The position numbers were made by a program, and so were the translations under genes. From positions 53,181 to 117,180 of the forward strand of contig JAVKHQ010000005.1 of the NCBI GenBank assembly GCA_031459875.1: 64,000 nucleotides of DNA, written 5' to 3'. This DNA is from Candidatus Fervidifonticultor sextus. Lineage in GTDB: Bacteria; Sysuimicrobiota; Sysuimicrobiia; Sysuimicrobiales; Humicultoraceae. Every line of letters starts with the position of its first letter. Within the stretch, counting starts at the first letter, position 1. The notes under the pieces were generated by a model that did no database searches, was not told where the DNA came from, and saw nothing but the letters and a program-made list of their open reading frames with translations. Positions 4,579-53,964 of this stretch are shown here, in pieces.

Positions 4579-5094
4579 CTACGGCGCCGACATGCGCACG
4601 GGTACCGAGATGGCCACCGCTCCCGCCCGCTCGAAGTGCAGCGTCACGGCGAGCCGCTCCCCCTCTTTGAGGTCGCGCTTGAGTCCCAGCAGCATGATGT
4701 GGAGCCCACCCGGACGCAGCTGCGCCCGTCCGCGAGCAGGGACCACGATGGCCGGCACCTTGTGCATGCGACTCATGCCGCCCTCCATGCGCGTCTCATG
4801 GAGTTCCACCGCGGCGGCGACCCCGGCGTCGGCGCGCAACAGCCGGTCAGCCTGCGAGCCGGTGTTGTGAATGACCATGTAGATCGCCGAGGCGCCAGGT
4901 CCCATCTCCGTGCCTTTCCCATGGACACCGGCGGGTGCCGCGACGCCCGGCCGTGCCCAGGCCTTCTCGATCCTGATCGATGACGCAGGCGACGCGGCAT
5001 CGCCCGAGATGGTGGCGGCTCCGATAAACACGGCAGCGGCAACGAGGGGCGCACCCGAGAGCCACAGGTGCCTCATCTGACGTGACAGGTACAT
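4579..5094 (-). CDS. Copper chaperone PCu(A)C, copy 1
   Basis: AWAR, SAIYMVIHN, VELHET...MSRM, LRPGGLHIML; aaggag upstream. Confidence 0.92.
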   Translation of the reverse strand: MYLSRQMRHLWLSGAPLVAAAVFIGAATISGDAASPASSIRIEKAWARPGVAAPAGVHGKGTEMGPGASAIYMVIHNTGSQADRLLRADAGVAAAVELHETRMEGGMSRMHKVPAIVVPARGRAQLRPGGLHIMLLGLKRDLKEGERLAVTLHFERAGAVAISVPVRMSAP

Positions 5095-5148
5095 CTCTGG
5101 ATCACTCCTTTGCCAATCGGTCGCGACGCGAAGTCGGGCGTGTTGCAT

Positions 5149-5733
5149 CTAGTGCCTGAGCAGCTGACGGACGTCGTGTGCCACGTCGGCCGCGGTGGCC
5201 TCGTGGCTCACATTCAGACGCCAGCGTCCCTCCCGGTCGATGACGGGGACGTTCGTCGAGTGCGCTATGAGGTACCCCGCTGCGCTGTTGCGTACCGGGA
5301 CCTTCTGGAACGCGGCGCCGAAGAATCGGTAGGTCGCGGCCAACAGATGCGGGGGGCCTGTCAGACCTACGAACTCGGGGCTGAACAGACGGAGGTACCG
5401 GTCGAGGAACGCCGGGGTGTCAACCTCGGGGTCGAGCGTGATGAACACGAAGCGGACTCGCGCGGCGTCCGTCCCCAGTATCTTGGCGACGTCCCGGAAC
5501 ATCCCCAGGGTGAGCGGACAGACGTCCGGGCACCTGGTGTAGCCAAAGAAGACCAGGACGACGCGCCCCCGTTGCTCGGCGAGGTTGAACGGCCGCCCGT
5601 GCTGGTCGCTCAGCACGAGCCTCGGGACCGGGCGCGCAGGGTCGAGTTCGCGGGCTCGGAAGCTTGGGCGGTGGCACGCGGAGAGGAGCAGCACGGCCAA
5701 GCCGCTGGCGATCCATCTGATCCATCGGGCCAT
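5149..5733 (-). CDS. SCO1/SenC family lipoprotein, copy 1
   Basis: Lipobox LSAC, FGYTRCPDVCP, TLDPEVDTP, conserved His in IAHS. Confidence 0.93.
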   Translation of the reverse strand: MARWIRWIASGLAVLLLSACHRPSFRARELDPARPVPRLVLSDQHGRPFNLAEQRGRVVLVFFGYTRCPDVCPLTLGMFRDVAKILGTDAARVRFVFITLDPEVDTPAFLDRYLRLFSPEFVGLTGPPHLLAATYRFFGAAFQKVPVRNSAAGYLIAHSTNVPVIDREGRWRLNVSHEATAADVAHDVRQLLRH

Positions 5734-5828
5734 AACTAGCCTCCCGCGAAAGGTGTCTACCACGACGCCGCACCGCAACACGCCGGGAGTCGACGGCGTG
5801 GAGTGGCGGGCCGCAGTGGTGAGTCGGA

Positions 5829-6344
5829 TTAGGCTGGGCGGTGGGCTCGAGGCGGAGGGTCCGGAACGGGGAGGGGGATGGGCATGAGGCCCGGCGAGAC
5901 CGGGCGGGCGACCCGTTCGGTCGGCGGTGGCGCTCCCGGCATCACTGTCGCTGGCGCCGTGGCGACGGCCAGGCCCGAGACGCTGAGGACCTGCGCGCCA
6001 TGGGCGGTCCCGGGAAGGACGGACACGACACGCGGCAGTTCAGAAATTCGTCGGCTGCCGTGCGGGGGCCACGCCGCGCTCTTCCCGTTCTCACCATGAT
6101 GTCCGGGGGATCCGCGCTGCCGGTCGTGGCCGTGGCGACGGTGGTGGGCGAGCGCGTCGGCGCGCTGCGCAGGCGTACCGCCGATCACCACGTGCAGGTG
6201 GTACGGGTCGCGCTCCACCGCCTGCGTGTCGGCGACCGGGACGATCAGTCGCAAGACCATCGCCGGCAACGCAACCGCGGCCACAACCAGGAACGGACCC
6301 GGACGGCTTGAGCGATCTGCCGGCGCCGCGCGACATGGGAACAT
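5829..6344 (-). CDS. His-rich putative leader protein ending VPDPPPR, copy 1
   Basis: Hydrophobic segment, ERDPYHLHVVIGGTP..ALAHH, C-terminal PDPPPR; paralogous to 32883-33401 and 35201-35680. Confidence 0.8.
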   Translation of the reverse strand: MFPCRAAPADRSSRPGPFLVVAAVALPAMVLRLIVPVADTQAVERDPYHLHVVIGGTPAQRADALAHHRRHGHDRQRGSPGHHGENGKSAAWPPHGSRRISELPRVVSVLPGTAHGAQVLSVSGLAVATAPATVMPGAPPPTERVARPVSPGLMPIPLPVPDPPPRAHRPA

Positions 6345-31657: not shown

Positions 31658-32167
31658 TCAGGGCGCCGCCATTCGCACCGGCACCCGGACCGCCACCGCC
31701 CCGGCCTGCTCGAAGTGCAGCGTCGCTGTGAACCGATCCCCCTCCCGAAGGTCGCGCTTGAGGCCAAGCAGCATGATGTGGAGGCCGCTTGGCCGCAGCG
31801 TCACCCGGCCGCCCGCGGGCACCACAATAGCCGGCAGCTTGTGCATGCGACTCATGCCGCCCTCCATGCGCGTCTCGTGGAGCTCCACGGCGGCGGCAAC
31901 GTCGGTCTCGGCACGCACCAGACGATCACCCCTCGGTCCGGTGTTGTGGATGGTCATGTAGATCGCCGACGTGCCGGGGCCCATGGCCATGGTGGTCCCG
32001 TGGGCACCGGCGGGAGCCGCGATGCCTGGCCGCGCCTAGGCGTCCTCGATGCGGATAGGCGAGGCCGGCGGCGCCGCTTCGCTGGCAGCGATGGCGGCCA
32101 TGAACACCACTGCGGTGAAGAGGGCCGTGCCTCGCAGCCACGAGATTCTCAAGCACATCAAGTCCAT
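31658..32167 (-). pseudogene. PCu(A)C copy 2 with in-frame TAG at 32036-32038
   Basis: IRIEDA*ARPG versus IRIEKAWARPG in copy 1; SD and signal peptide intact upstream. Confidence 0.8.
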
Positions 32168-32216: not shown

Positions 32217-32792
32217 CTAGTGCCGCAACAGCTGCCGGATGTCGTGTACCAGGTCGTCCGCGGTGGCCTCGTGGCTCAGATTCAGACGCCAGCGGCCCTG
32301 CCGGTCGATGACGGCGATGTTCGCCGAGTGCGCCACGAGGTACCCCGCCGCGCTCTTGGGCACCGGGACCTTCTCGAACGCCGCGCCGAAGAATCGGTAC
32401 GTGGTGGTCAGTGCGTCCGGGGGGCCCGCCAGGCCCACGAACTCCGGATGGAACAGCCGCAGGTACCGGTCGAGGAACGCCGGCGTGTCGATTTCCTGGT
32501 CCACCGTGACGAATACGAAGCGAACCCGTGCGGCATCCGCCCCGAGCCTCTCGGCGACCTGGCGGAAGACCCCGAGTACGAGGGGGCAGACATCCGGGCA
32601 CCGGGTGTACCCGAAGAAGATCAGGACGACCCGACCCCGCTGCCCGGCCAGGTTGAACGGGTGCCCATGTTGGTCGGTGAGCGTGAGCGCCGGCACCGGA
32701 CGGGGAGGATCGAGCACGCGGCCCCGGAAGGTCGGGCGCTGGCAGGCTGAGACCAGCAGCACCAACAGGCCGACGGCGATCCATCTGGACAT
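32217..32792 (-). CDS. SCO1/SenC family lipoprotein, copy 2
   Basis: Lipobox VSAC, FGYTRCPDVCP, VAHS; close paralog of 5149-5733. Confidence 0.93.
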   Translation of the reverse strand: MSRWIAVGLLVLLVSACQRPTFRGRVLDPPRPVPALTLTDQHGHPFNLAGQRGRVVLIFFGYTRCPDVCPLVLGVFRQVAERLGADAARVRFVFVTVDQEIDTPAFLDRYLRLFHPEFVGLAGPPDALTTTYRFFGAAFEKVPVPKSAAGYLVAHSANIAVIDRQGRWRLNLSHEATADDLVHDIRQLLRH

Positions 32793-32882: not shown

Positions 32883-33401
32883 CTAGGCGAGAGGGTCTGG
32901 TCGGGGCGGGGGATCCGGGACGGGAATGGCGACCCGGGCGACGCGCGGCGGGGCCAGACCTGCGATCTGTCCGGTGGCCCGGGGGGCGGGGGGCCCCGCA
33001 GGCGCCGCCACCGTTGCGACCGACAGGCCGGTCGTGCTCAGGACCATCGCGCCCGAGGCAGTCCCGGGAAGGACCGACACGACGCGCGGGACTTGGGGGT
33101 CGCCCTGGGCCATTCGTTGGGTCTGCCCCCCGCCCGTCCAGTGTCGTCCCGGATGTCCGGCGGAGCCGTGCGGTCTGTCGTGGTCGTGGTGACGGTGGTG
33201 GGCGAGTGCTTCAGCGCGCTGCGCGGGGGTGCCGCCGATGACGAGATGCAGGTGGTAGGGATCGCGCTCCACCGCCTGCGTGTTGGCGATGGGCAGGATC
33301 AGCCGCGCGATGGTCACCAGCAACAGGCCCGTGCCCGCAGCCTGGCGTGGCGACGAGCGATCCCAGCGGGCGACCAATGTCGCGCGAGGCACGAGCATCA
33401 T
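32883..33401 (-). CDS. His-rich putative leader protein ending VPDPPPR, copy 2
   Basis: ERDPYHLHLVIGGTP..ALAHHRHHDH, VPDPPPRPDPLA; TATAAT at 33415-33420 on the minus strand. Confidence 0.8.
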   Translation of the reverse strand: MMLVPRATLVARWDRSSPRQAAGTGLLLVTIARLILPIANTQAVERDPYHLHLVIGGTPAQRAEALAHHRHHDHDRPHGSAGHPGRHWTGGGQTQRMAQGDPQVPRVVSVLPGTASGAMVLSTTGLSVATVAAPAGPPAPRATGQIAGLAPPRVARVAIPVPDPPPRPDPLA

Positions 33402-33530: not shown

Positions 33531-34445
33531 TTAGCGCGTCTTCAGGTAGCGGAGAAGCCCCAGCGCGCTCAGCCGCGTGGACATGATCGTCTCGAACCGG
33601 GCCACGCGGTCTGGCCCGTCGAGCCGGGCGGCTTCGACCGCCATCACGTGGCGCATCCGGCGCGCGATCGCGTCTTCATCAGCGCCGTCCTCCAGGGCCA
33701 CGCGGACCAGTTCCACCGCCGCGTGCAGGCGCTGCTGCAACTGCGCCAGCAGCTCCTCGACCCAGGTGTGCGCGCCGAAGTGCGTCAGCAGGAGCCGCCG
33801 CGCTCCAAGCCCCTGCAGGCGCCCGATGGTGGCATCCCACGCCGGGACGTCGAGTTCGGGGGGTGGGGTCGGGGGGCGGACGTAGCGGGATCCCGGCAGC
33901 GCCACGCCGGCCGCGTCCCCGGTGAAGAGGTCCCCGGAGGCGCGATCGAAGTAGACGACGTGATGACGGGCGTGGCCGGGGGTATCGAAGACGGCCAGCC
34001 GACGCGACCCCAGCAACACCTCCGCCCCCTCGCCGATGACGCGGATCCGCTCGTGGGGCACCGGGGCCACCTCGCCGAAGAGCCGCTCCAGGTCCGCGCC
34101 GTACAGCCGCCGGGCGCTGGCCATCAGCCGCGAGGGATCCGCCAGGTGGGGCGCGCCCACCGGGTGCACGTAGACCTCCAGATGCGGGAACCGACGCACG
34201 AGGACGCCGGTGGCGCCCGCATGGTCCAGGTGAATGTGGGTCACGGCCAGGGCCTGGAGGTCTTCGGGCTCCACCCCCGCGGCCCGCACGCTCTCCAGGA
34301 GGGTCTCCACGGTAGACGCCGGCCCGGTCTCGATCAGGGCCGGCCGGTCGCCCGTCAGCAGGTAGGCGCCGATGGCCTGCGGGGTCCCTTCGTAGTCGGT
34401 GTCAATCAGAACGAGATCGTCGGCCAGGCGTTCGATGCGCGGCAT
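33531..34445 (-). CDS. MBL-fold metallo-hydrolase
   Basis: THIHLDHAG, TPGHARHH, FTGDAAG, LTHFG. Confidence 0.92.
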   Translation of the reverse strand: MPRIERLADDLVLIDTDYEGTPQAIGAYLLTGDRPALIETGPASTVETLLESVRAAGVEPEDLQALAVTHIHLDHAGATGVLVRRFPHLEVYVHPVGAPHLADPSRLMASARRLYGADLERLFGEVAPVPHERIRVIGEGAEVLLGSRRLAVFDTPGHARHHVVYFDRASGDLFTGDAAGVALPGSRYVRPPTPPPELDVPAWDATIGRLQGLGARRLLLTHFGAHTWVEELLAQLQQRLHAAVELVRVALEDGADEDAIARRMRHVMAVEAARLDGPDRVARFETIMSTRLSALGLLRYLKTR

Positions 34446-34546
34446 GGGTCGTCCCCCGGTGAGCGTCCGGCATCACAATAACACAGCCGGATGTGGTATG
34501 CTCACCTGCGAGATTGCCACGCGAGCCTCAGGTGAGGGGTTGCGGC

Positions 34547-35197
34547 ATGTCACCAGGCGGCAAGGCTACCCGGGAGGCGAAGCGACAGCGCCGTGAGGCG
34601 GCGCTCGCGGCCCGGCGCGAAGAGCAGCGTCGGCTCCAGGCCCGGCGGCGACGGCGGGCGCTGGCCGTCTACGGGGGCATCGCCTTGATCGTGGTGGCCG
34701 GCGTGGGGTTGCTGACGCTCTCGGCGCTCCGCCCTCAGTCCAGCATCTTGGGTGCCATCGGCGGCTTCGGGAAGCCGTCTGGCCTGGAGGGGGTCCAGGT
34801 GTTTGCGGACCAGGGCGCGGCCCACATCACCCTGGGCCAGGCGCACCCTCCGTACAACTCCAATCCGCCCACCTCGGGATGGCACACTCCCTTCACCGCC
34901 CCCTGGGGAGTGCACCGCACGTCGATCGCGGACGAGATCATCGTCCACAACCTGGAGCACGGCGGCATCTGGATTTCATACAGGGACGCATCCGACACGG
35001 CGCTGGTGGAGAGGCTGGAAGCCCTGGTGTCCCGCTACCGCTCCAAGGTGATCCTGACGCCGCGGTCCAATAACGACAGCCGGATCGCCGTGGCCGCCTG
35101 GACGCGCCTGCTGAAACTCGACGAGTACGACGAGCGGAAGATCGTGGCCTTCATCAACGCCTTCAAGAACAAGGGACCGGAGATGGTCCCTGACTGA
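34547..35197 (+). CDS. DUF3105 membrane-anchored protein
   Basis: Basic N-terminus plus TM, YNSNPPTSGWH, VHNLEHG, AAW. Confidence 0.87.
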   Translation: MSPGGKATREAKRQRREAALAARREEQRRLQARRRRRALAVYGGIALIVVAGVGLLTLSALRPQSSILGAIGGFGKPSGLEGVQVFADQGAAHITLGQAHPPYNSNPPTSGWHTPFTAPWGVHRTSIADEIIVHNLEHGGIWISYRDASDTALVERLEALVSRYRSKVILTPRSNNDSRIAVAAWTRLLKLDEYDERKIVAFINAFKNKGPEMVPD

Positions 35198-35200
35198 GCG

Positions 35201-35680
35201 GTGGAGGACCGGCGGCTGATGGAGGCTGCACGTTGCGCCAGGGCGGCGGCCGTGGTCACGCGCCCGGTCCGAACGTCTCTGCTCCCCGTGTTCCTGGTCA
35301 TCGTCCTTCTTGGTGCTTTCGATCCGGGTGCGGGGGAGCGGGGTCCTTCGCACGCACACATCGTAATCGGTGGCACCCCGGACGAGCAGGCGCGAGCCCT
35401 CGCTGCCCATTTGCGGGGCGCGCACTCGTCGGCCACCTCCCACGCCTGGCATGTGCTCTTCCGGGCCTCCGACGAGGCGACAGACCACCCCCACGTGATC
35501 TCCATCAGCACGGGTGCGGTCGGTGCCTCCGTCCTCGGAGTCGGCGACGGGACCATGGTGGCCGCGCCCGCCAGCCGGGTGCCCCGCGCACCGCTGTCCG
35601 GCCGGGTTGTGCCCCTGCAGTCCGCGGCGCCGGCCGAAGCCGATCGGACCGTCCCTGATCCGCCTCCTCGCCTCACCTGA
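35201..35680 (+). CDS. His-rich putative leader protein ending VPDPPPR, copy 3
   Basis: TM segment, ERGPSHAHIVIGGTP..ALAAH, VPDPPPRLT; start may be 35219. Confidence 0.75.
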   Translation: MEDRRLMEAARCARAAAVVTRPVRTSLLPVFLVIVLLGAFDPGAGERGPSHAHIVIGGTPDEQARALAAHLRGAHSSATSHAWHVLFRASDEATDHPHVISISTGAVGASVLGVGDGTMVAAPASRVPRAPLSGRVVPLQSAAPAEADRTVPDPPPRLT

Positions 35681-35781: not shown

Positions 35782-36216
35782 GTGAGAAGGCAGCTCCTTG
35801 TGCTGGCCCTGTGCGTCCCCCTGACCCTGGGCGTCATCGCGCCAGCCGTTCTCGGTCACCAGACGAAGGTGGTGGGCGGCAAGTACCGGGTAATCGTGGG
35901 GTTTGTCCGGGAGCCCGCCTTCACCGATGAGCGCAACGGCCTGGACCTGATCGTGCGCCGGGTTGAAGACAATGCCCCCGTGGAGCACCTCGAACGCAGC
36001 CTCTCGGCCGAACTGATCGCCCCAGGAGGCCAGGGCAGGCGGGCGCTGCGGCTTCGGCCGCAGTTCGGCCGGCCCGGCTACTACACCGACGACTTCATCC
36101 TGACCCGTCCGGGTGTCTACCAGATCCGCGTGTGGGGCGTCATCGCTGACGTGCGCTTCGACGAGACGTTTGAGTCCCATGAGGTCAGGCCGCTCAGTGA
36201 GTTGCGGTTTCCGTAG
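35782..36216 (+). CDS. Secreted protein with predicted mature N-terminal His (copper-operon associated)
   Basis: ggaggt SD plus GTG, signal peptide then HQTKVVG; adjacent to copC. Confidence 0.75.
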   Translation: MRRQLLVLALCVPLTLGVIAPAVLGHQTKVVGGKYRVIVGFVREPAFTDERNGLDLIVRRVEDNAPVEHLERSLSAELIAPGGQGRRALRLRPQFGRPGYYTDDFILTRPGVYQIRVWGVIADVRFDETFESHEVRPLSELRFP

Positions 36217-36217
36217 C

Positions 36218-36676
36218 ATGCGGGGATCGTTTCCCGAGACTGTCCTGGTCGGCGCCGCCCTGGCCCTCCTGGGGGCCGGGGCGGCTGCCGCCCACGCCTA
36301 CCTCAGGGCCGCGGAGCCGGCCGAGGACAGCACGGTGGCGGTCGCCCCCAGCGAGGTTCGGCTTGTGTTCAGCGAACCCATCGAGGTCCGGTTCAGTACC
36401 TTCAAGGTCTATCGGGTGCCCGCTGATCCGGGGTGGGATCGGCGTCGCCTCAACGCGGCTGCAGGCGCCCTGGTCTCGGAGGTCCTTCGGCGTCGCGGTG
36501 ACGAAGCCGACCGGGCGGATGCCGGCCTGGCGACGGCCGCACGTACGACCACCACCGTGACGCTACGCCTGCGTCCCCATCTGGCTCCCGGCGCCTACGC
36601 GGTGATGTGGCGGGTGCTGTCGATCGACACGCATGTCACCCAGGGCTTCTACGTGTTTCGGATCAGACCGAACTGA
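36218..36676 (+). CDS. copC: CopC copper-binding protein
   Basis: AAA-HAYL..AEP, VRLVFSEP, YAVMWRVLSIDTH. Confidence 0.9.
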   Translation: MRGSFPETVLVGAALALLGAGAAAAHAYLRAAEPAEDSTVAVAPSEVRLVFSEPIEVRFSTFKVYRVPADPGWDRRRLNAAAGALVSEVLRRRGDEADRADAGLATAARTTTTVTLRLRPHLAPGAYAVMWRVLSIDTHVTQGFYVFRIRPN

Positions 36677-36697: not shown

Positions 36698-38401
36698 ATG
36701 GACGTCCTCGCCAGGACCCTTTCCTACCTCGGCGCGACCCTGTTGATTGGTGCAGGGATCTTCGCCTTCTGGATCGGCCCCGAGATGGCCCGCAGCGCGG
36801 CGCGTGGGCGGATCCGCCTCGGCGCGCTGGCGGGAGTCTGCCTGCTGCTGGTGGGGACCGCACTGGGGGTGATCCGGGGACTCCTCCAGGCGCTGGGCGA
36901 ACTGGGTCCGGCCATGGTACCGGCCTACCTTCTCGGGACCCGTCACGGCAACGCGGCCGCCGCCCGGATCGTGCTCGCCGTCCTGCTCGGGGTCATGGCG
37001 CCGGGCCGCGGCGGCCGACTCAGCAGGCCCGTCTTTCTGGGGCTCGCCGCCGGCCTGCTCGCGACTTTCAGCCTGACCAGCCACGCCGCCGGCCTCGGTC
37101 GGGTCTTCCCGATCCTGGCGGACCTGGTCCACCTTTCCGGCGCCGCCGTGTGGGCCGGCGTCGTGCTCTACCTGGCATGGGCTCCAGTCTGGGTGCCCAG
37201 CCTGCCGCAGGGCGCCCCCGGAGATTCTCTGAGCCAGGCCGTGCGGCAGACCTCCGCGATCGGACTGGCCTGCGTCCTCCTGCTCGTTGCGACCGGCGCC
37301 TACGCGGCCGCCCTGCACCTCTGGGGCCCCGTGGCGCTCTCGGCCACCCCGTACGGCCGGACCCTCGCGGGCAAACTCGCGGCCATCGCCCTGCTGCTGG
37401 CAATCGCTGCGGTGAACCGTTGGGTGCTCACTCCTGGTCTTGGGCGGCCCGGATTCCTCGGGGCGACTGGCCGCCTGCTGAAGGTCGAGTCGCTGGTTCT
37501 GGCCGCCGTCTTGTCCCTGACTGCCCTGCTCACCACGCGCCCGCTGCCCGAGCCGCCGGCCTCCGTGGAGGGCGTCGTGACCATCAATGAGGTGGCTGGC
37601 CCCTGGCTGGTGCGGGGGAGCCTGGCTCCGGCGATTCCCGACGGGCTCACCCTTGAGTTGACGGTCCGCCGCGCTGGCGGCGCCCTCCCGGTGGGCCCGA
37701 TGTCCGTGGAAGCCGTGATGACCATGCAGGGGCATCCGATGCCGCCGGTGGTCATCCGGCCGACGGCCACCGGTCCGGGAAGTTTCCGCGCCGCTGTCTC
37801 GCTGCCGATGGCTGGCGCGTGGGACCTCGCTATCGTCCTGCCGGGCGCCGTCCTCCGTGTTCCCGTCATGGCTCGCAGCGGTCCGGGGGGCGGCTCAGGG
37901 TGGGCTCCAGTGCTGCCAGGTCTCCTGCTGGCGGTCGCCGCCTCGGTCGTTGCGGGTGCCATGCTCGACCGGGCAGGCCTCCACACGCAGACAGGCCGGC
38001 TGGCCGCCCTCACAGGAGGCGCCCTGCTGGCGGTCGGCCTGACCTTCGCCGTCCGCGCCGCAGCCCCCGCCACCTCGCCGGGCGGGATCCCTGACCGGCA
38101 GAATCCCATCGCCCCGACGGCGGAGTCGCTGGCCGCCGGAGAACGCCTCTACCGGCAGCATTGCCAGGCCTGCCACGGGCTCACCGGAGCCGGCGACGGT
38201 CCGGCCGCCGCAGCGCTCCGCCCGCCGCCGGCGGACCTGCGGGTGCACATGGCGGCGGGGCACACCGACGGCCAGCTCTTCCACTGGATCAGCGAGGGCA
38301 TGCCCGGGACCGCCATGCCAGCCTTCAAGAATATCCTCTCCGAGGAGGACCGCTGGCATGTGTTGAACTTCATCAAATCGTTCGCCCTCAGCGATCGGTA
38401 A
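36698..38401 (+). CDS. copD: CopD fused to a YtkA-like domain and cytochrome c
   Basis: TSHA, VHL...VWAG, TPYGRTL..KL; TMQGHPM..LPMAGAW; CQACH with AMP axial Met. Confidence 0.85.
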   Translation: MDVLARTLSYLGATLLIGAGIFAFWIGPEMARSAARGRIRLGALAGVCLLLVGTALGVIRGLLQALGELGPAMVPAYLLGTRHGNAAAARIVLAVLLGVMAPGRGGRLSRPVFLGLAAGLLATFSLTSHAAGLGRVFPILADLVHLSGAAVWAGVVLYLAWAPVWVPSLPQGAPGDSLSQAVRQTSAIGLACVLLLVATGAYAAALHLWGPVALSATPYGRTLAGKLAAIALLLAIAAVNRWVLTPGLGRPGFLGATGRLLKVESLVLAAVLSLTALLTTRPLPEPPASVEGVVTINEVAGPWLVRGSLAPAIPDGLTLELTVRRAGGALPVGPMSVEAVMTMQGHPMPPVVIRPTATGPGSFRAAVSLPMAGAWDLAIVLPGAVLRVPVMARSGPGGGSGWAPVLPGLLLAVAASVVAGAMLDRAGLHTQTGRLAALTGGALLAVGLTFAVRAAAPATSPGGIPDRQNPIAPTAESLAAGERLYRQHCQACHGLTGAGDGPAAAALRPPPADLRVHMAAGHTDGQLFHWISEGMPGTAMPAFKNILSEEDRWHVLNFIKSFALSDR

Positions 38402-52854: not shown

Positions 52855-53964
52855 TCAGGCGGTGTACCGGGCCCTCCGGACCGTCTGCCGCTCGACCCGT
52901 TCCGGCACGACCCGCATCCCCAGGCCGGGGGAGGCGGGCACCGTGATCGTCCCGTCGCTGTTGAGGGTCACCGGCGGGTCGATGAGGTCTTCCTCGAAGT
53001 AGCGGTCGCTGGCCGACAGGTCGCCGGGCAGGGTGAAGCCCGGAAGGGACGCGAGTGCCAGGTTGGCGGCGCGCCCGATCCCGGTTTCCAGCATCCCGCC
53101 GCACCAGACGGGGATGCCGCGCGAGCGACAGAGGTCGTGGATCGCCACCGCCTCCCCCAGCCCGCCGACCCGCGCCGGCTTGATGTTGATGACGCGACAG
53201 GACCCCAGTTCCAGCGCCGCCCGGGCCGCCCGGGCGTGCACGATGGACTCGTCCAGGCAGATCGGGGTGCGCAGGCGGGCCTGGAGTTTGGCGTGATCGA
53301 CAAGGTCGTCTTCTTCCAGCGGCTGCTCGATGAGCAGGAGGCCGTAGGCGTCGAGCGCTTCGAAGGTCGCGGCGTCGGACAGCGAGAAGGCGGAGTTGGC
53401 GTCCACCTGCAGCAGGATGTCCCCGAACCGCTCGCGGATGCGGCGCACGGGCTCGACGTCGAACCCCGGTTTGATCTTGATCTTGATCCGGCGGTACCCG
53501 GCCCGCAGGTAGCCGTCCACGCGGTCGAGCAGTTCGTCCACCGTGGGCTCGATGCCCACGCTCACGCCGGCTGTGATGCGCTCGCGTTCACCGCCCAGCA
53601 GCGCGGCCAGCGGCTTCCCCTGCCGCTGCGCCTCGAGGTCCCACAGCGCGGCCTCCACCGCGGCCTTGGCCATGTGGTTGCGGCGGATGCGGGCCACCTG
53701 CCGGGCGAACCCCTGGGGGGATGGCAGCTCGCGACCCACCAGCGGCGGGATGATGTAGCGCTCCAGGATCGCCCACACGCTCTCGTGGGTCTCTTCGTTG
53801 TAGAGTCCGCCCATGCCCGTGGGCGCTTCGCCCCAACCCTCCAGACCGTCGGCCTGGACGCGGACCAGGATGCCCGGCAGGGTCTGCTCGCGGCCGAACG
53901 AGGTCTCAAACGGCGAGCGCAGCGTCATCTGGATCTGTCGGAGTTCCACCGCGTCAATCTTCAT
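52855..53964 (-). CDS. o-Succinylbenzoate synthase / N-succinylamino acid racemase (NSAR/OSBS)
   Basis: PFETSFG, KIKIKPG, DAN, EQP, DESI, GGMLETGIGRA, GDLSAS. Confidence 0.92.
   Translation of the reverse strand: MKIDAVELRQIQMTLRSPFETSFGREQTLPGILVRVQADGLEGWGEAPTGMGGLYNEETHESVWAILERYIIPPLVGRELPSPQGFARQVARIRRNHMAKAAVEAALWDLEAQRQGKPLAALLGGERERITAGVSVGIEPTVDELLDRVDGYLRAGYRRIKIKIKPGFDVEPVRRIRERFGDILLQVDANSAFSLSDAATFEALDAYGLLLIEQPLEEDDLVDHAKLQARLRTPICLDESIVHARAARAALELGSCRVINIKPARVGGLGEAVAIHDLCRSRGIPVWCGGMLETGIGRAANLALASLPGFTLPGDLSASDRYFEEDLIDPPVTLNSDGTITVPASPGLGMRVVPERVERQTVRRARYTA

Follow-up and report, generated by a model that had tools for sequence, protein, structure and literature searches.

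A histidine-type family of candidate metal-sensing leaders upstream of copper operons in Candidatus Fervidifonticultor sextus

Three homologous genes of Candidatus Fervidifonticultor sextus, each the first gene ahead of a copper operon, encode proteins with an N-terminal membrane segment, three invariant histidines and a proline motif, [D/E]PPPR, a few residues before the stop codon. They may be cis-acting, co-translationally exported leaders that sense metal and thus serve as His-type functional analogues of CutF and CruR; judged from conservation, gene order and predicted RNA structure, this reading has, in our estimation, about an even chance of being right. The genes lie in a stretch of 64,000 nucleotides (positions 53,181 to 117,180, forward strand, of contig JAVKHQ010000005.1 in assembly GCA_031459875.1), called the window below, and coordinates are positions in the window unless a locus or genome identifier precedes them. 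An initial annotation, made from the letters of this DNA alone, had singled out the three open reading frames as candidate copper-sensing leaders.

The leader genes and their copper operons

The three genes were found where the initial annotation had placed them, and they align with 43 invariant columns. Among these are E44, R45, P47, H49, H51, V53, I54, G55, G56, T57 and P58 (the motif ER.P.H.H.VIGGTP), A64, L65, A66 and H68 (A.ALA.H), and, close to the C-terminus, V160, P161, D162, P163, P164, P165 and R166 (VPDPPPR). The arginine of VPDPPPR is separated from the stop by five, five and two residues in copies 1, 2 and 3, in agreement with the two to five residues first noted. Copy 1 (5829-6344, minus strand; 171 amino acids) runs from an ATG at 6344 to a TAA at 5829-5831; its start was picked to give an N-terminal length equal to that of the closest homologs, and the open frame extends to 6476. 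Copy 2 (32883-33401, minus strand) has 172 amino acids and copy 3 (35201-35680, plus strand) has 159.

Each leader is followed by a copper operon after a spacer, measured from leader stop to the next start bearing a Shine-Dalgarno (SD) sequence, of 95, 90 and 101 nucleotides (nt) for copies 1, 2 and 3 respectively, as had been claimed. Behind copy 1 lie the gene for an SCO1/SenC lipoprotein (5149-5733, minus strand, ATG at 5731-5733; Pfam PF02630, E 3.7e-36) and that for a PCu(A)C copper chaperone (4579-5148, minus strand; PF04314, E 4e-33). Copy 2 precedes a second module of the same type, with SCO at 32217-32792 and PCuAC at 31658-31990 (both minus strand, both recognized by Pfam). Copy 3 is followed on the plus strand by an unannotated exported gene (35782-36216), by CopC (within 36113-36676; Pfam, E 2.5e-18) and by a CopD-YtkA-cytochrome c fusion (36698-38401; Pfam, E 4e-14). 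The whole genome (3.05 Mb, 96% complete) holds these three leader copies and no others, one for each copper operon, which fits the expectation for a cis-acting element. EF-P and Rho are both encoded in the genome. DNA of the locus is present in hot-spring metagenome runs, and none of the RNA runs checked for it carried the locus. A match to the Rho RNA-binding domain falls inside the window, at about 784-999 on the plus strand (G000:C45:53964-54179).

Extent of the family and constancy of its position

A profile built from the three copies retrieved 98 cluster representatives among 1.84 billion at E<=1e-3, and 33 at 1e-10; the three frames are therefore homologous and do not owe their resemblance to chance. 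The same profile gave 15 matches in the collection clustered at 90%, and at least one member of the family comes from a metagenome-assembled genome (MAG) of Chloroflexota. A search with the three-copy alignment gave two loci, both in Ca. Fervidifonticultor MAGs (phylum Ca. Sysuimicrobiota, uncultivated and thermophilic, formerly CSP1-3), and matches at E<=1e-3 occur in 30 of 94 genomes of the phylum (20 of 54 among those of high quality). The family alignment used below comprises 94 of 109 proteins, the 15 left out being one alternative-start duplicate, two N-truncated sequences, short fragments, close duplicates and some proteins with aberrant ends. Members have a median length of 155 residues, and 35 of the 94 are shorter than 150.

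Neither the window copies nor the 94 members match any Pfam or NCBIfam model. As the initial annotation had anticipated, the leaders do not belong to DUF2946 (PF11162): none of the three copies matches it at E<=0.1, one of the 94 members does so at E=0.32, which is noise, and the genome contains no match at E<=0.01. Full-text literature searches found no description of the family, the protein list of PMC9973294 (File S1) lying outside their coverage.

Gene order was compared around 30 matches with flanks of at most 6 kb, all open frames being scanned with the family profile and with the copper proteins of the window. The constant position upstream of copper genes that had been expected in relatives is indeed seen. 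The 33 family frames examined include the three of the window. In 30 of the 33, the next frame on the same strand begins within about 280 nt and is a homolog of a copper-operon gene: SCO, with PCuAC after it, in 11, and the unannotated exported gene, CopC or CopD in 19. Of the remaining three, one lies 59 nt from a contig end, one stands ahead of another kind of exported protein, which has an N-terminal His, and one is a degenerate copy, its PPPR end lost and no copper gene downstream. The leader gene invariably heads its operon and occurs at no other position in it. In a divergent, metagenome-derived subfamily (57-72% G+C), CopC or CopD is downstream in all four loci with room for it, two more loci being too short to judge. 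Spacers range from 36 to 219 nt over 29 loci, several being just 36-37 nt. A maximum-likelihood tree of 29 leaders, in which 13 of 26 inner branches remain open and 5 changes of label are needed against 8.4 in shuffles, is too poorly resolved to tell whether the SCO-type and CopCD-type leaders are old separate lineages.

Anatomy of the leader proteins

An N-terminal membrane helix or signal anchor (residues 17-38; 6231-6296, minus strand) is modelled by AlphaFold2 with a predicted local distance difference test (pLDDT) score of 77-92 and is preceded by a short Arg-rich tail. A hydrophobic segment is present at this position in all aligned members; a small-x-small cleavage site is not universal. 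Next comes the motif ERDPYHLHVVIGGTPAQRADALAH (6141-6215, minus strand), with H49, H51 and H68 invariant throughout the 94-sequence alignment and with 16-18 residues from H51 to H68 in 92 sequences. Two further conserved elements, PRVVSV and GAxVLS, are predicted to be strands (residues 105-129; 5958-6032, minus strand), and VPDPPPR itself is encoded at 5847-5867 on the minus strand, the three Pro codons cct ccg cct occupying 5850-5858 and the pentamer CCUCC 5854-5858. P164 and P165 are invariant like the three histidines, and P47, G55, L65, V106, P163 and R166 are nearly so. That the family uses His instead of Cys, as first proposed, agrees with the rarity of CxxC or CxxxC (2 of 94 members). 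The His-rich stretch also noted at the outset is a feature of copies 1 and 2 and is not general, since just 38 of 94 members have at least four His in the 20 residues from H68.

PPP occurs within the last 18 residues of 101 of 109 proteins and PP in 105; the eight proteins lacking PPP are two fragments, four with ends of the LPPR, RPPR or QPPE type, and two whose ends are unrelated. All anchors are present in 92 of the 94 aligned members, and in these the number of residues after PPP has a median of 3 and a range of 2-14. Asp precedes PPP in 43 of these 92 and Glu in 27 (70 together), and Arg follows it in 85, so that the conservation of [D/E]PPPR next to the stop, which the proposal of a stalling leader had required, is borne out. 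In E. coli reporters, EPPP ranks with the stronger stall motifs of the XPPP type (PMC4176338).

The AlphaFold2 model of copy 1, computed from the 94-row alignment, has a mean pLDDT of 72. A strand at residues 50-54 carries H49 and H51 and a helix at 58-71 carries H68; a linker of low confidence follows, and then strands at 105-109, 118-121 and 126-129. Residues 120-150 are poorly conserved and score 47-59. Foldseek returned no match in the PDB at E<=10, and the best of 48,161 chains compared by VIA-align reached a Z of 2.5; with a model pLDDT of only 72, this absence of structural matches is no evidence for a new fold. The protein has no cytoplasmic domain, only the short variable tail ahead of the helix, and a regulatory signal could therefore pass only via the nascent chain.

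A fixed distance to the proline motif

One length in the family is held nearly constant. From V106 to the first Pro of PPP there are 56 residues (range 54-58, standard deviation 0.9) in 92 sequences whose columns average about 20% identity, and from G116 to PPP there are 46 (44-48) in the same number. Other lengths vary, the linker between H68 and V106 being 19-65 residues and the N-terminus 18-106. In CutF, 45 residues separate the metal-binding motif from the arrest motif, a distance argued in the accessible part of PMC9973294 to set the metal motif at the SecY exit; its authors reckon with about 30 residues for the ribosomal tunnel and about 17 for crossing the membrane. By the same arithmetic, the conserved strands of the present leaders would stand at the outer mouth of the translocon while PPP is being decoded.

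Proline codons and the downstream Shine-Dalgarno sequence

RNA was analysed at the 29 loci where PPP is intact and the downstream start can be assigned; of the four excluded, one lies at the contig end, two lack PPP and one has an ambiguous start. The share of CCT among Pro codons is 7.4% in the downstream genes, 13% in the leaders outside PPP and 30% (26 of 87) within it; CCT stands at the middle Pro in 15 of 29 loci. The pentamer CCTCC occurs within the PPP codons of 19 of the 29 loci, or of 17 of 24 clusters at 60% identity. The background, for which the PPP motifs of a single genome with crude gene calls are more apt than overall codon usage, is 136 of 480 for all PPP motifs (28%), 12 of 41 for [D/E]PPP and 14 of 39 for C-terminal ones, and against it the enrichment has a binomial P of 3e-5 (all motifs) or 1e-3 (C-terminal motifs).

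Partition-function folds covered the segment that begins 60 nt ahead of PPP and ends 20 nt beyond the downstream start, and pairing of the SD was scored in a zone from -15 to +24 around the first Pro nucleotide, roughly what a ribosome on PPP would cover. This zone takes up half or more of the pairing probability of the SD core in 20 of 29 loci, whose spacers measure 36-157 nt (17 of 29 at 60 C). Among same-strand junctions of the genome treated by the identical protocol (spacers of 30-160 nt, SD-bearing start), the SD is mostly paired with the end zone of the upstream gene in 45 of 620 (7%), and in 1 of 18 C-rich controls. RNAalifold, applied to the four SCO-type loci nearest copy 1, gives an outer consensus helix between CCUCC of the Pro codons and GGAGG of the SD; the helix is kept in all four, with one C-A mismatch in copy 2, and shows no covariation, both sides being invariant. 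Synonymous recoding weakens the duplex between leader tail and own SD with p<=0.05 in 9 of 29 loci (mean shift -2.3 kcal/mol, Wilcoxon p 0.01), and a leader pairs slightly better with its own SD than mismatched pairs do (p 0.03). Of the three loci whose SD is of the GGGGG type, one (L045) retains CCTCC and the other two have Pro codons of the CCCCC type instead, with an exact 9-nt complement in one of the two.

In the window, pairing between the SD and the 3' end of the leader is predicted in all three copies. The initial annotation had supposed such pairing for copy 1, although with another stretch. It had the codons after PPP (5838-5847) pair with the SD of SCO and enclose a hairpin in the spacer (5734-5828, minus strand). 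The inner hairpin, cacgccg with cggcgug (5794-5800 and 5779-5785), does appear in both the minimum-free-energy (MFE) and the centroid structure. The pairing of 5838-5847 with the SD was dropped: the predicted partner of that segment is gcggugcgg, in the spacer, and the SD (GGGAGG, 5740-5745, minus strand; predicted paired with a probability of 0.82-0.89) takes as its partner, in the MFE and centroid structures of a 186-nt fold, a second CCUCC at 5870-5874 (minus strand), in the codons of Pro156, Leu157 and Pro158. The SD behind copy 2 pairs with the last five codons of the leader, and that behind copy 3 with the last codons and the stop, in MFE and centroid alike. No intrinsic terminator or sigma-70-like promoter was found between leader copy 1 and SCO.

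By eye, the spacers of L034 and L022 show a G+C-rich hairpin and then six consecutive T immediately ahead of the downstream SD; these might be attenuator-like terminators.

A possible mechanism and its rivals

In the scheme that we favour, the N-terminal helix would direct the nascent chain to the Sec translocon, and the motif with His49, His51 and His68 would emerge on the outer face of the membrane. When the ribosome arrived at [D/E]PPPR, three to six codons ahead of the stop, the conserved strands would lie 46-56 residues behind the peptidyl-transferase centre, approximately the combined length of ribosomal tunnel and translocon. The ribosome would pause on Pro-Pro-Pro, for a time set by whether the external part had bound copper and folded or pulled. 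A paused ribosome would cover the last 15 or so codons of the leader, whose predicted partner in free mRNA is the next gene's SD, and pausing would thus open the SD of SCO, CopC, CopD or the unannotated exported gene. The polarity would be that of CruR, with a long pause and expression on when copper is absent, and release and expression off when it is present. Such a polarity is expected because the targets are copper-supply genes, and YcnJ-type importers are induced by copper limitation; the sign of the copper response is nevertheless a guess. Since EF-P and Rho are both encoded, a readout of either the CutF or the CruR type is possible.

We argue for a cis-acting translational device over a mere protein partner because there is one copy per operon, because a cytoplasmic domain is absent, because PPPR lies near the stop, because the Pro codons show selection at synonymous sites and because SD pairing is specific to the family. 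In a more specific and rather doubtful version, the fixed spacing is a folding ruler: the three-His copper site and the strands would assemble outside the membrane while PPP is decoded, folding around copper would pull on the chain and set the pause, and the CCUCC Pro codons would be the anti-SD that the ribosome uncovers.

Several results weigh against a sensing leader of this kind. The constancy of the spacing may have been inflated by the profile search, which may favour sequences free of insertions and deletions, and a folded domain would likewise keep its length; the His motif, for its part, is not at a fixed distance from PPP. The leaders are large for such a role (median 155 residues) and have a conserved extracytoplasmic part with predicted strands and helix, and the C-terminal tail, with a pLDDT of 78-87, also fits a stable protein in which PPPR is structural. 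At the RNA level, masking a ribosome footprint on PPP raises the mean unpaired probability of the SD only from 0.14 to 0.25 (0.145 for an upstream control; Wilcoxon p 0.001), equilibrium folding of G+C-rich RNA always yielding an alternative partner, and in copy 1 the modelled ribosome fails to free the SD (0.13 to 0.14). The 186-nt fold of copy 1 is no more stable than shuffles (z -0.40), those of copies 2 and 3 do not stand out either (z +0.92 and +0.08), and the three rank at 0.61, 0.30 and 0.58 among synonymous recodings, which is not significant in copy 1. There the partner of the SD also shifts with context, from CCUCC at 5870-5874 in the 186-nt fold to the last codons in partition-function folds and the Pro codons in the consensus. 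Pairing of the SD with the PPP zone is predicted in none of four divergent metagenome loci, two of them near-identical. Finally, masking of an SD by the end of the upstream gene also serves plain translational coupling, with no sensing involved.

The main rival holds that the genes encode a stable, membrane-anchored copper-binding accessory protein whose outward-facing three-His site hands copper to SCO/PCuAC or CopC/CopD, PPPR being a structural or docking element and the SD pairing a translational coupling that fixes stoichiometry; we take this to be a serious account, if a somewhat unlikely one. The conserved extracytoplasmic motifs with their three invariant His, the modelled order of strand, helix and three more strands, the well-scored tail and the median size of 155 residues all suit such a protein, a folded domain would also give the fixed length of 56 residues, and genes for copper chaperones typically adjoin those of their partners, as SCO adjoins PCuAC. 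Against it, residues 120-150 are poorly conserved and of low pLDDT, and the model resembles no solved fold by the Foldseek and VIA comparisons given above. Moreover, a function as protein leaves unexplained why PPPR is near-invariantly close to the stop and why its codons are enriched in CCUCC; the gene is always first and upstream; and the three paralogs keep an identical tail in operons with different partners. Another possibility is that [D/E]PPPR-xx has no bearing on translation and marks an exported protein for sorting, processing or recognition by a protease. The place of the motif at the extreme C-terminus and its conservation as amino acids would suit a tag, but no recognizing family or system turned up in the Pfam and NCBIfam scans, and the codon bias, the SD pairing and the strict upstream position would all go unexplained; we hold a tag to be very improbable.

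A different question is whether the same sensing leader might be read out at transcription, as CruR is: the paused ribosome would keep Rho from loading on the spacer and the C-rich end of the leader, release would lead to Rho-dependent termination ahead of the copper genes, and masking of the SD would be secondary. CruR controls a copper-uptake operon in this manner, according to the accessible part of PMC9426467, and Rho is encoded in the window. C exceeds G in the final 120 nt of the leaders (means of 0.43 and 0.28) and, by a small margin, in the spacers (0.36 against 0.31), and the divergent loci, with spacers of 122-153 nt, have no pairing between SD and PPP. The excess of C in the spacers is small, however, and the signature of Rho loading at best faint; the several spacers of 36-37 nt are too short for a loading site, and the pairing of SD with leader is specific to leader junctions (20 of 29 against 45 of 620). 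We regard readout through Rho as improbable, and prefer a cis-acting leader that works on translation.

Implications

To our knowledge, copper-sensing arrest leaders, that is, CutF and CruR, have been described only in 2021-2025, and essentially as Cys-motif DUF2946 proteins of Proteobacteria and Bacteroidota. What is new here, as far as the literature searched shows, is a family that has only His, is longer and is unrelated in sequence, and that accompanies SCO/PCuAC and CopC/CopD in Sysuimicrobiota and Chloroflexota; new as well are its ruler of 56 residues and its CCUCC Pro codons as the likely anti-SD. The kind of leader is already known, since PMC9973294 mentions, in its accessible part, both His-only CutF-like clusters and PCuAC neighbours.

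Were the leaders to act as proposed, the passing of an extracytoplasmic metal signal to the ribosome would have evolved more than once, and the mechanism would also govern the delivery of copper to respiratory oxidases (SCO/PCuAC) and uptake by CopC/CopD. If the folding-ruler version in particular were true, a peptide motif and an RNA switch would share one stretch of nine nucleotides, and Sysuimicrobiota and Chloroflexota would possess an independent, Cys-free control of the copper supply to cytochrome oxidase. The fixed spacing of 56 residues and the CCUCC Pro codons are handles by which an effect of the peptide can be separated from one of the RNA. For annotation, about a hundred clusters of 'hypothetical protein' gain a name.

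Neighbouring genes and decayed copies

Directly upstream of leader copy 3 lie a gene of the metallo-beta-lactamase (MBL) fold (33531-34445, minus strand) and a DUF3105 gene (34493-35197, plus strand) whose stop is 3 nt before the leader start; the order MBL, DUF3105, leader is seen again in L039. The PCuAC of the second module is interrupted by an in-frame TAG (32036-32038, minus strand) at a position where the copy-1 PCuAC has a Trp codon (IRIEDA*-ARPG against IRIEKAW-ARPG). The part with the signal peptide (to 32275) and that with the domain (31658-32035) share a frame, with the amber codon between them, and this could be a nonsense allele, an assembly error or a pseudogene.

The exported gene between leader copy 3 and CopC (35782-36216, plus strand) belongs to a family with members at the same place in L037 (5253-5897), L045 (6616-7257), L038 (5319-5975), L049 (6701-7366), L044 (1031-1462) and L022 (529-1062). 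Its predicted mature N-terminus begins with His (…A-HE.. or …G-HQ..), and it matches nothing in Pfam or NCBIfam. In other CopC/CopD operons the corresponding place is held by YcnI, and the family may be a copper-binding analogue. In L043 (G021:C12), where leader tail and spacer resemble those of L017 (G043:C5), there is only a 10-codon open frame behind the SD before CopD begins, as if the exported gene had been deleted and its ribosome-binding site left. Between leader and CopC, the divergent subfamily has a small lipoprotein gene (L066:1654-2226, L067:4586-5101, L068 and L069), whose product combines an N-terminal part of coiled-coil type with a C-terminal ...EAQHDLSHA... motif that is conserved; it reaches no Pfam family at the curated cut-off, the best match being DUF6779 with an E of 0.0025. 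An open frame resembling a heavy-metal P-type ATPase lies just upstream of the leader in L067. Two leaders, in L058 (G093:C30) and L051 (G066:C46), have decayed: one has an in-frame TAG yet stands 275 nt upstream of SCO-PCuAC, and the other ends in an unrelated C-terminus and is followed by no copper gene.

Comparison with known systems

The comparisons that follow draw on the accessible parts of the papers cited. Arrest peptides of the SecM, MifM, VemP and RAPP types (bioRxiv 10.1101/2025.02.05.636593; PMC10987492) share with the leaders an N-terminal export or membrane segment and a C-terminal arrest motif; in them a pulling force frees the arrest and the stalled ribosome opens the next SD, much as is proposed here. 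They differ in that they monitor the translocation machinery, precede secA, secDF or yidC, have other motifs and contain no metal site. The leaders do not fall into this class of Sec/YidC monitors, the genes downstream being SCO, PCuAC, CopC and CopD and the motif [D/E]PPPR. CzcI (PF28244), which forms cluster 20 in the sequence similarity network (SSN) of CutF-like proteins in PMC9973294, is, like the leaders, a small exported protein encoded upstream of a metal operon, and, unlike them, is without a C-terminal proline motif as described there. A language-model search placed a CzcI cluster at rank 24 with a score of 0.92, which is a lead only; no match to PF28244 was found among the 94 members at E<=1.

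The closer parallels are with CutF of Rhodobacter capsulatus (cutFOG; PMC9973294, bioRxiv 10.1101/2025.02.05.636593). CutF and the window leaders both have an N-terminal hydrophobic segment (of Sec type in CutF, putatively so in the leaders), a metal-binding motif in the exported part (binding by the leaders being a prediction) and a C-terminal PPP beside a basic residue. Both genes lie on the same strand as, and immediately upstream of, a copper gene with a spacer below about 100 nt, both are specific to their operon, and in both the downstream SD is masked by RNA structure, again as predicted for the leaders. PCuAC, the neighbour in the modules of copies 1 and 2, is also a frequent neighbour of CutF-like genes (PMC9973294). 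The differences are nonetheless considerable. CutF is a DUF2946 protein with no detectable sequence relationship to the leaders; it has CxxxC where they have three His, and CutF-like proteins are shorter than 150 residues, as against about 155 for the leader family and 171, 172 and 159 for the window copies. What is held at a fixed distance from PPP is the metal motif in CutF (45 residues) and the strand elements in the leaders (46 and 56), and the SD is paired with an intergenic stem-loop in the one and, by prediction, with the leader's own last codons in the other. The target of CutF is a detoxifying oxidase, and those of the window family supply copper (SCO, PCuAC, CopC/CopD). The CutF-like clusters that have only His (SSN 14 and 17; PMC9973294) adjoin HupE/UreJ and not copper genes.

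List D of PMC9973294 describes CutF-like proteins by an N-terminal Sec signal peptide, a metal motif mostly of Cys or of Cys with His, and a length below 150 residues. The window copies are longer than that (159-172 residues), and the family has a His-only motif where the list has Cys. A proline repeat within the last 15 residues is present in the leaders, with a median of 3 residues after PPP, and the upstream position and short spacer that the list asks for are seen in 30 of 33 frames, with spacers of 36-219 nt.

CruR (Bp2923) of Bordetella pertussis (PMC9426467) differs from the leaders in its CxxC and RAPP motifs, its Rho-dependent termination, its dispensable signal peptide and its spacer of 162 nt, and it has no sequence match to them. 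Like them, it is an upstream open reading frame at the head of a copper-acquisition operon, and it combines a metal motif with a C-terminal, Pro-containing arrest motif. Its polarity, in which copper switches the supply genes off, is that expected for the leaders.

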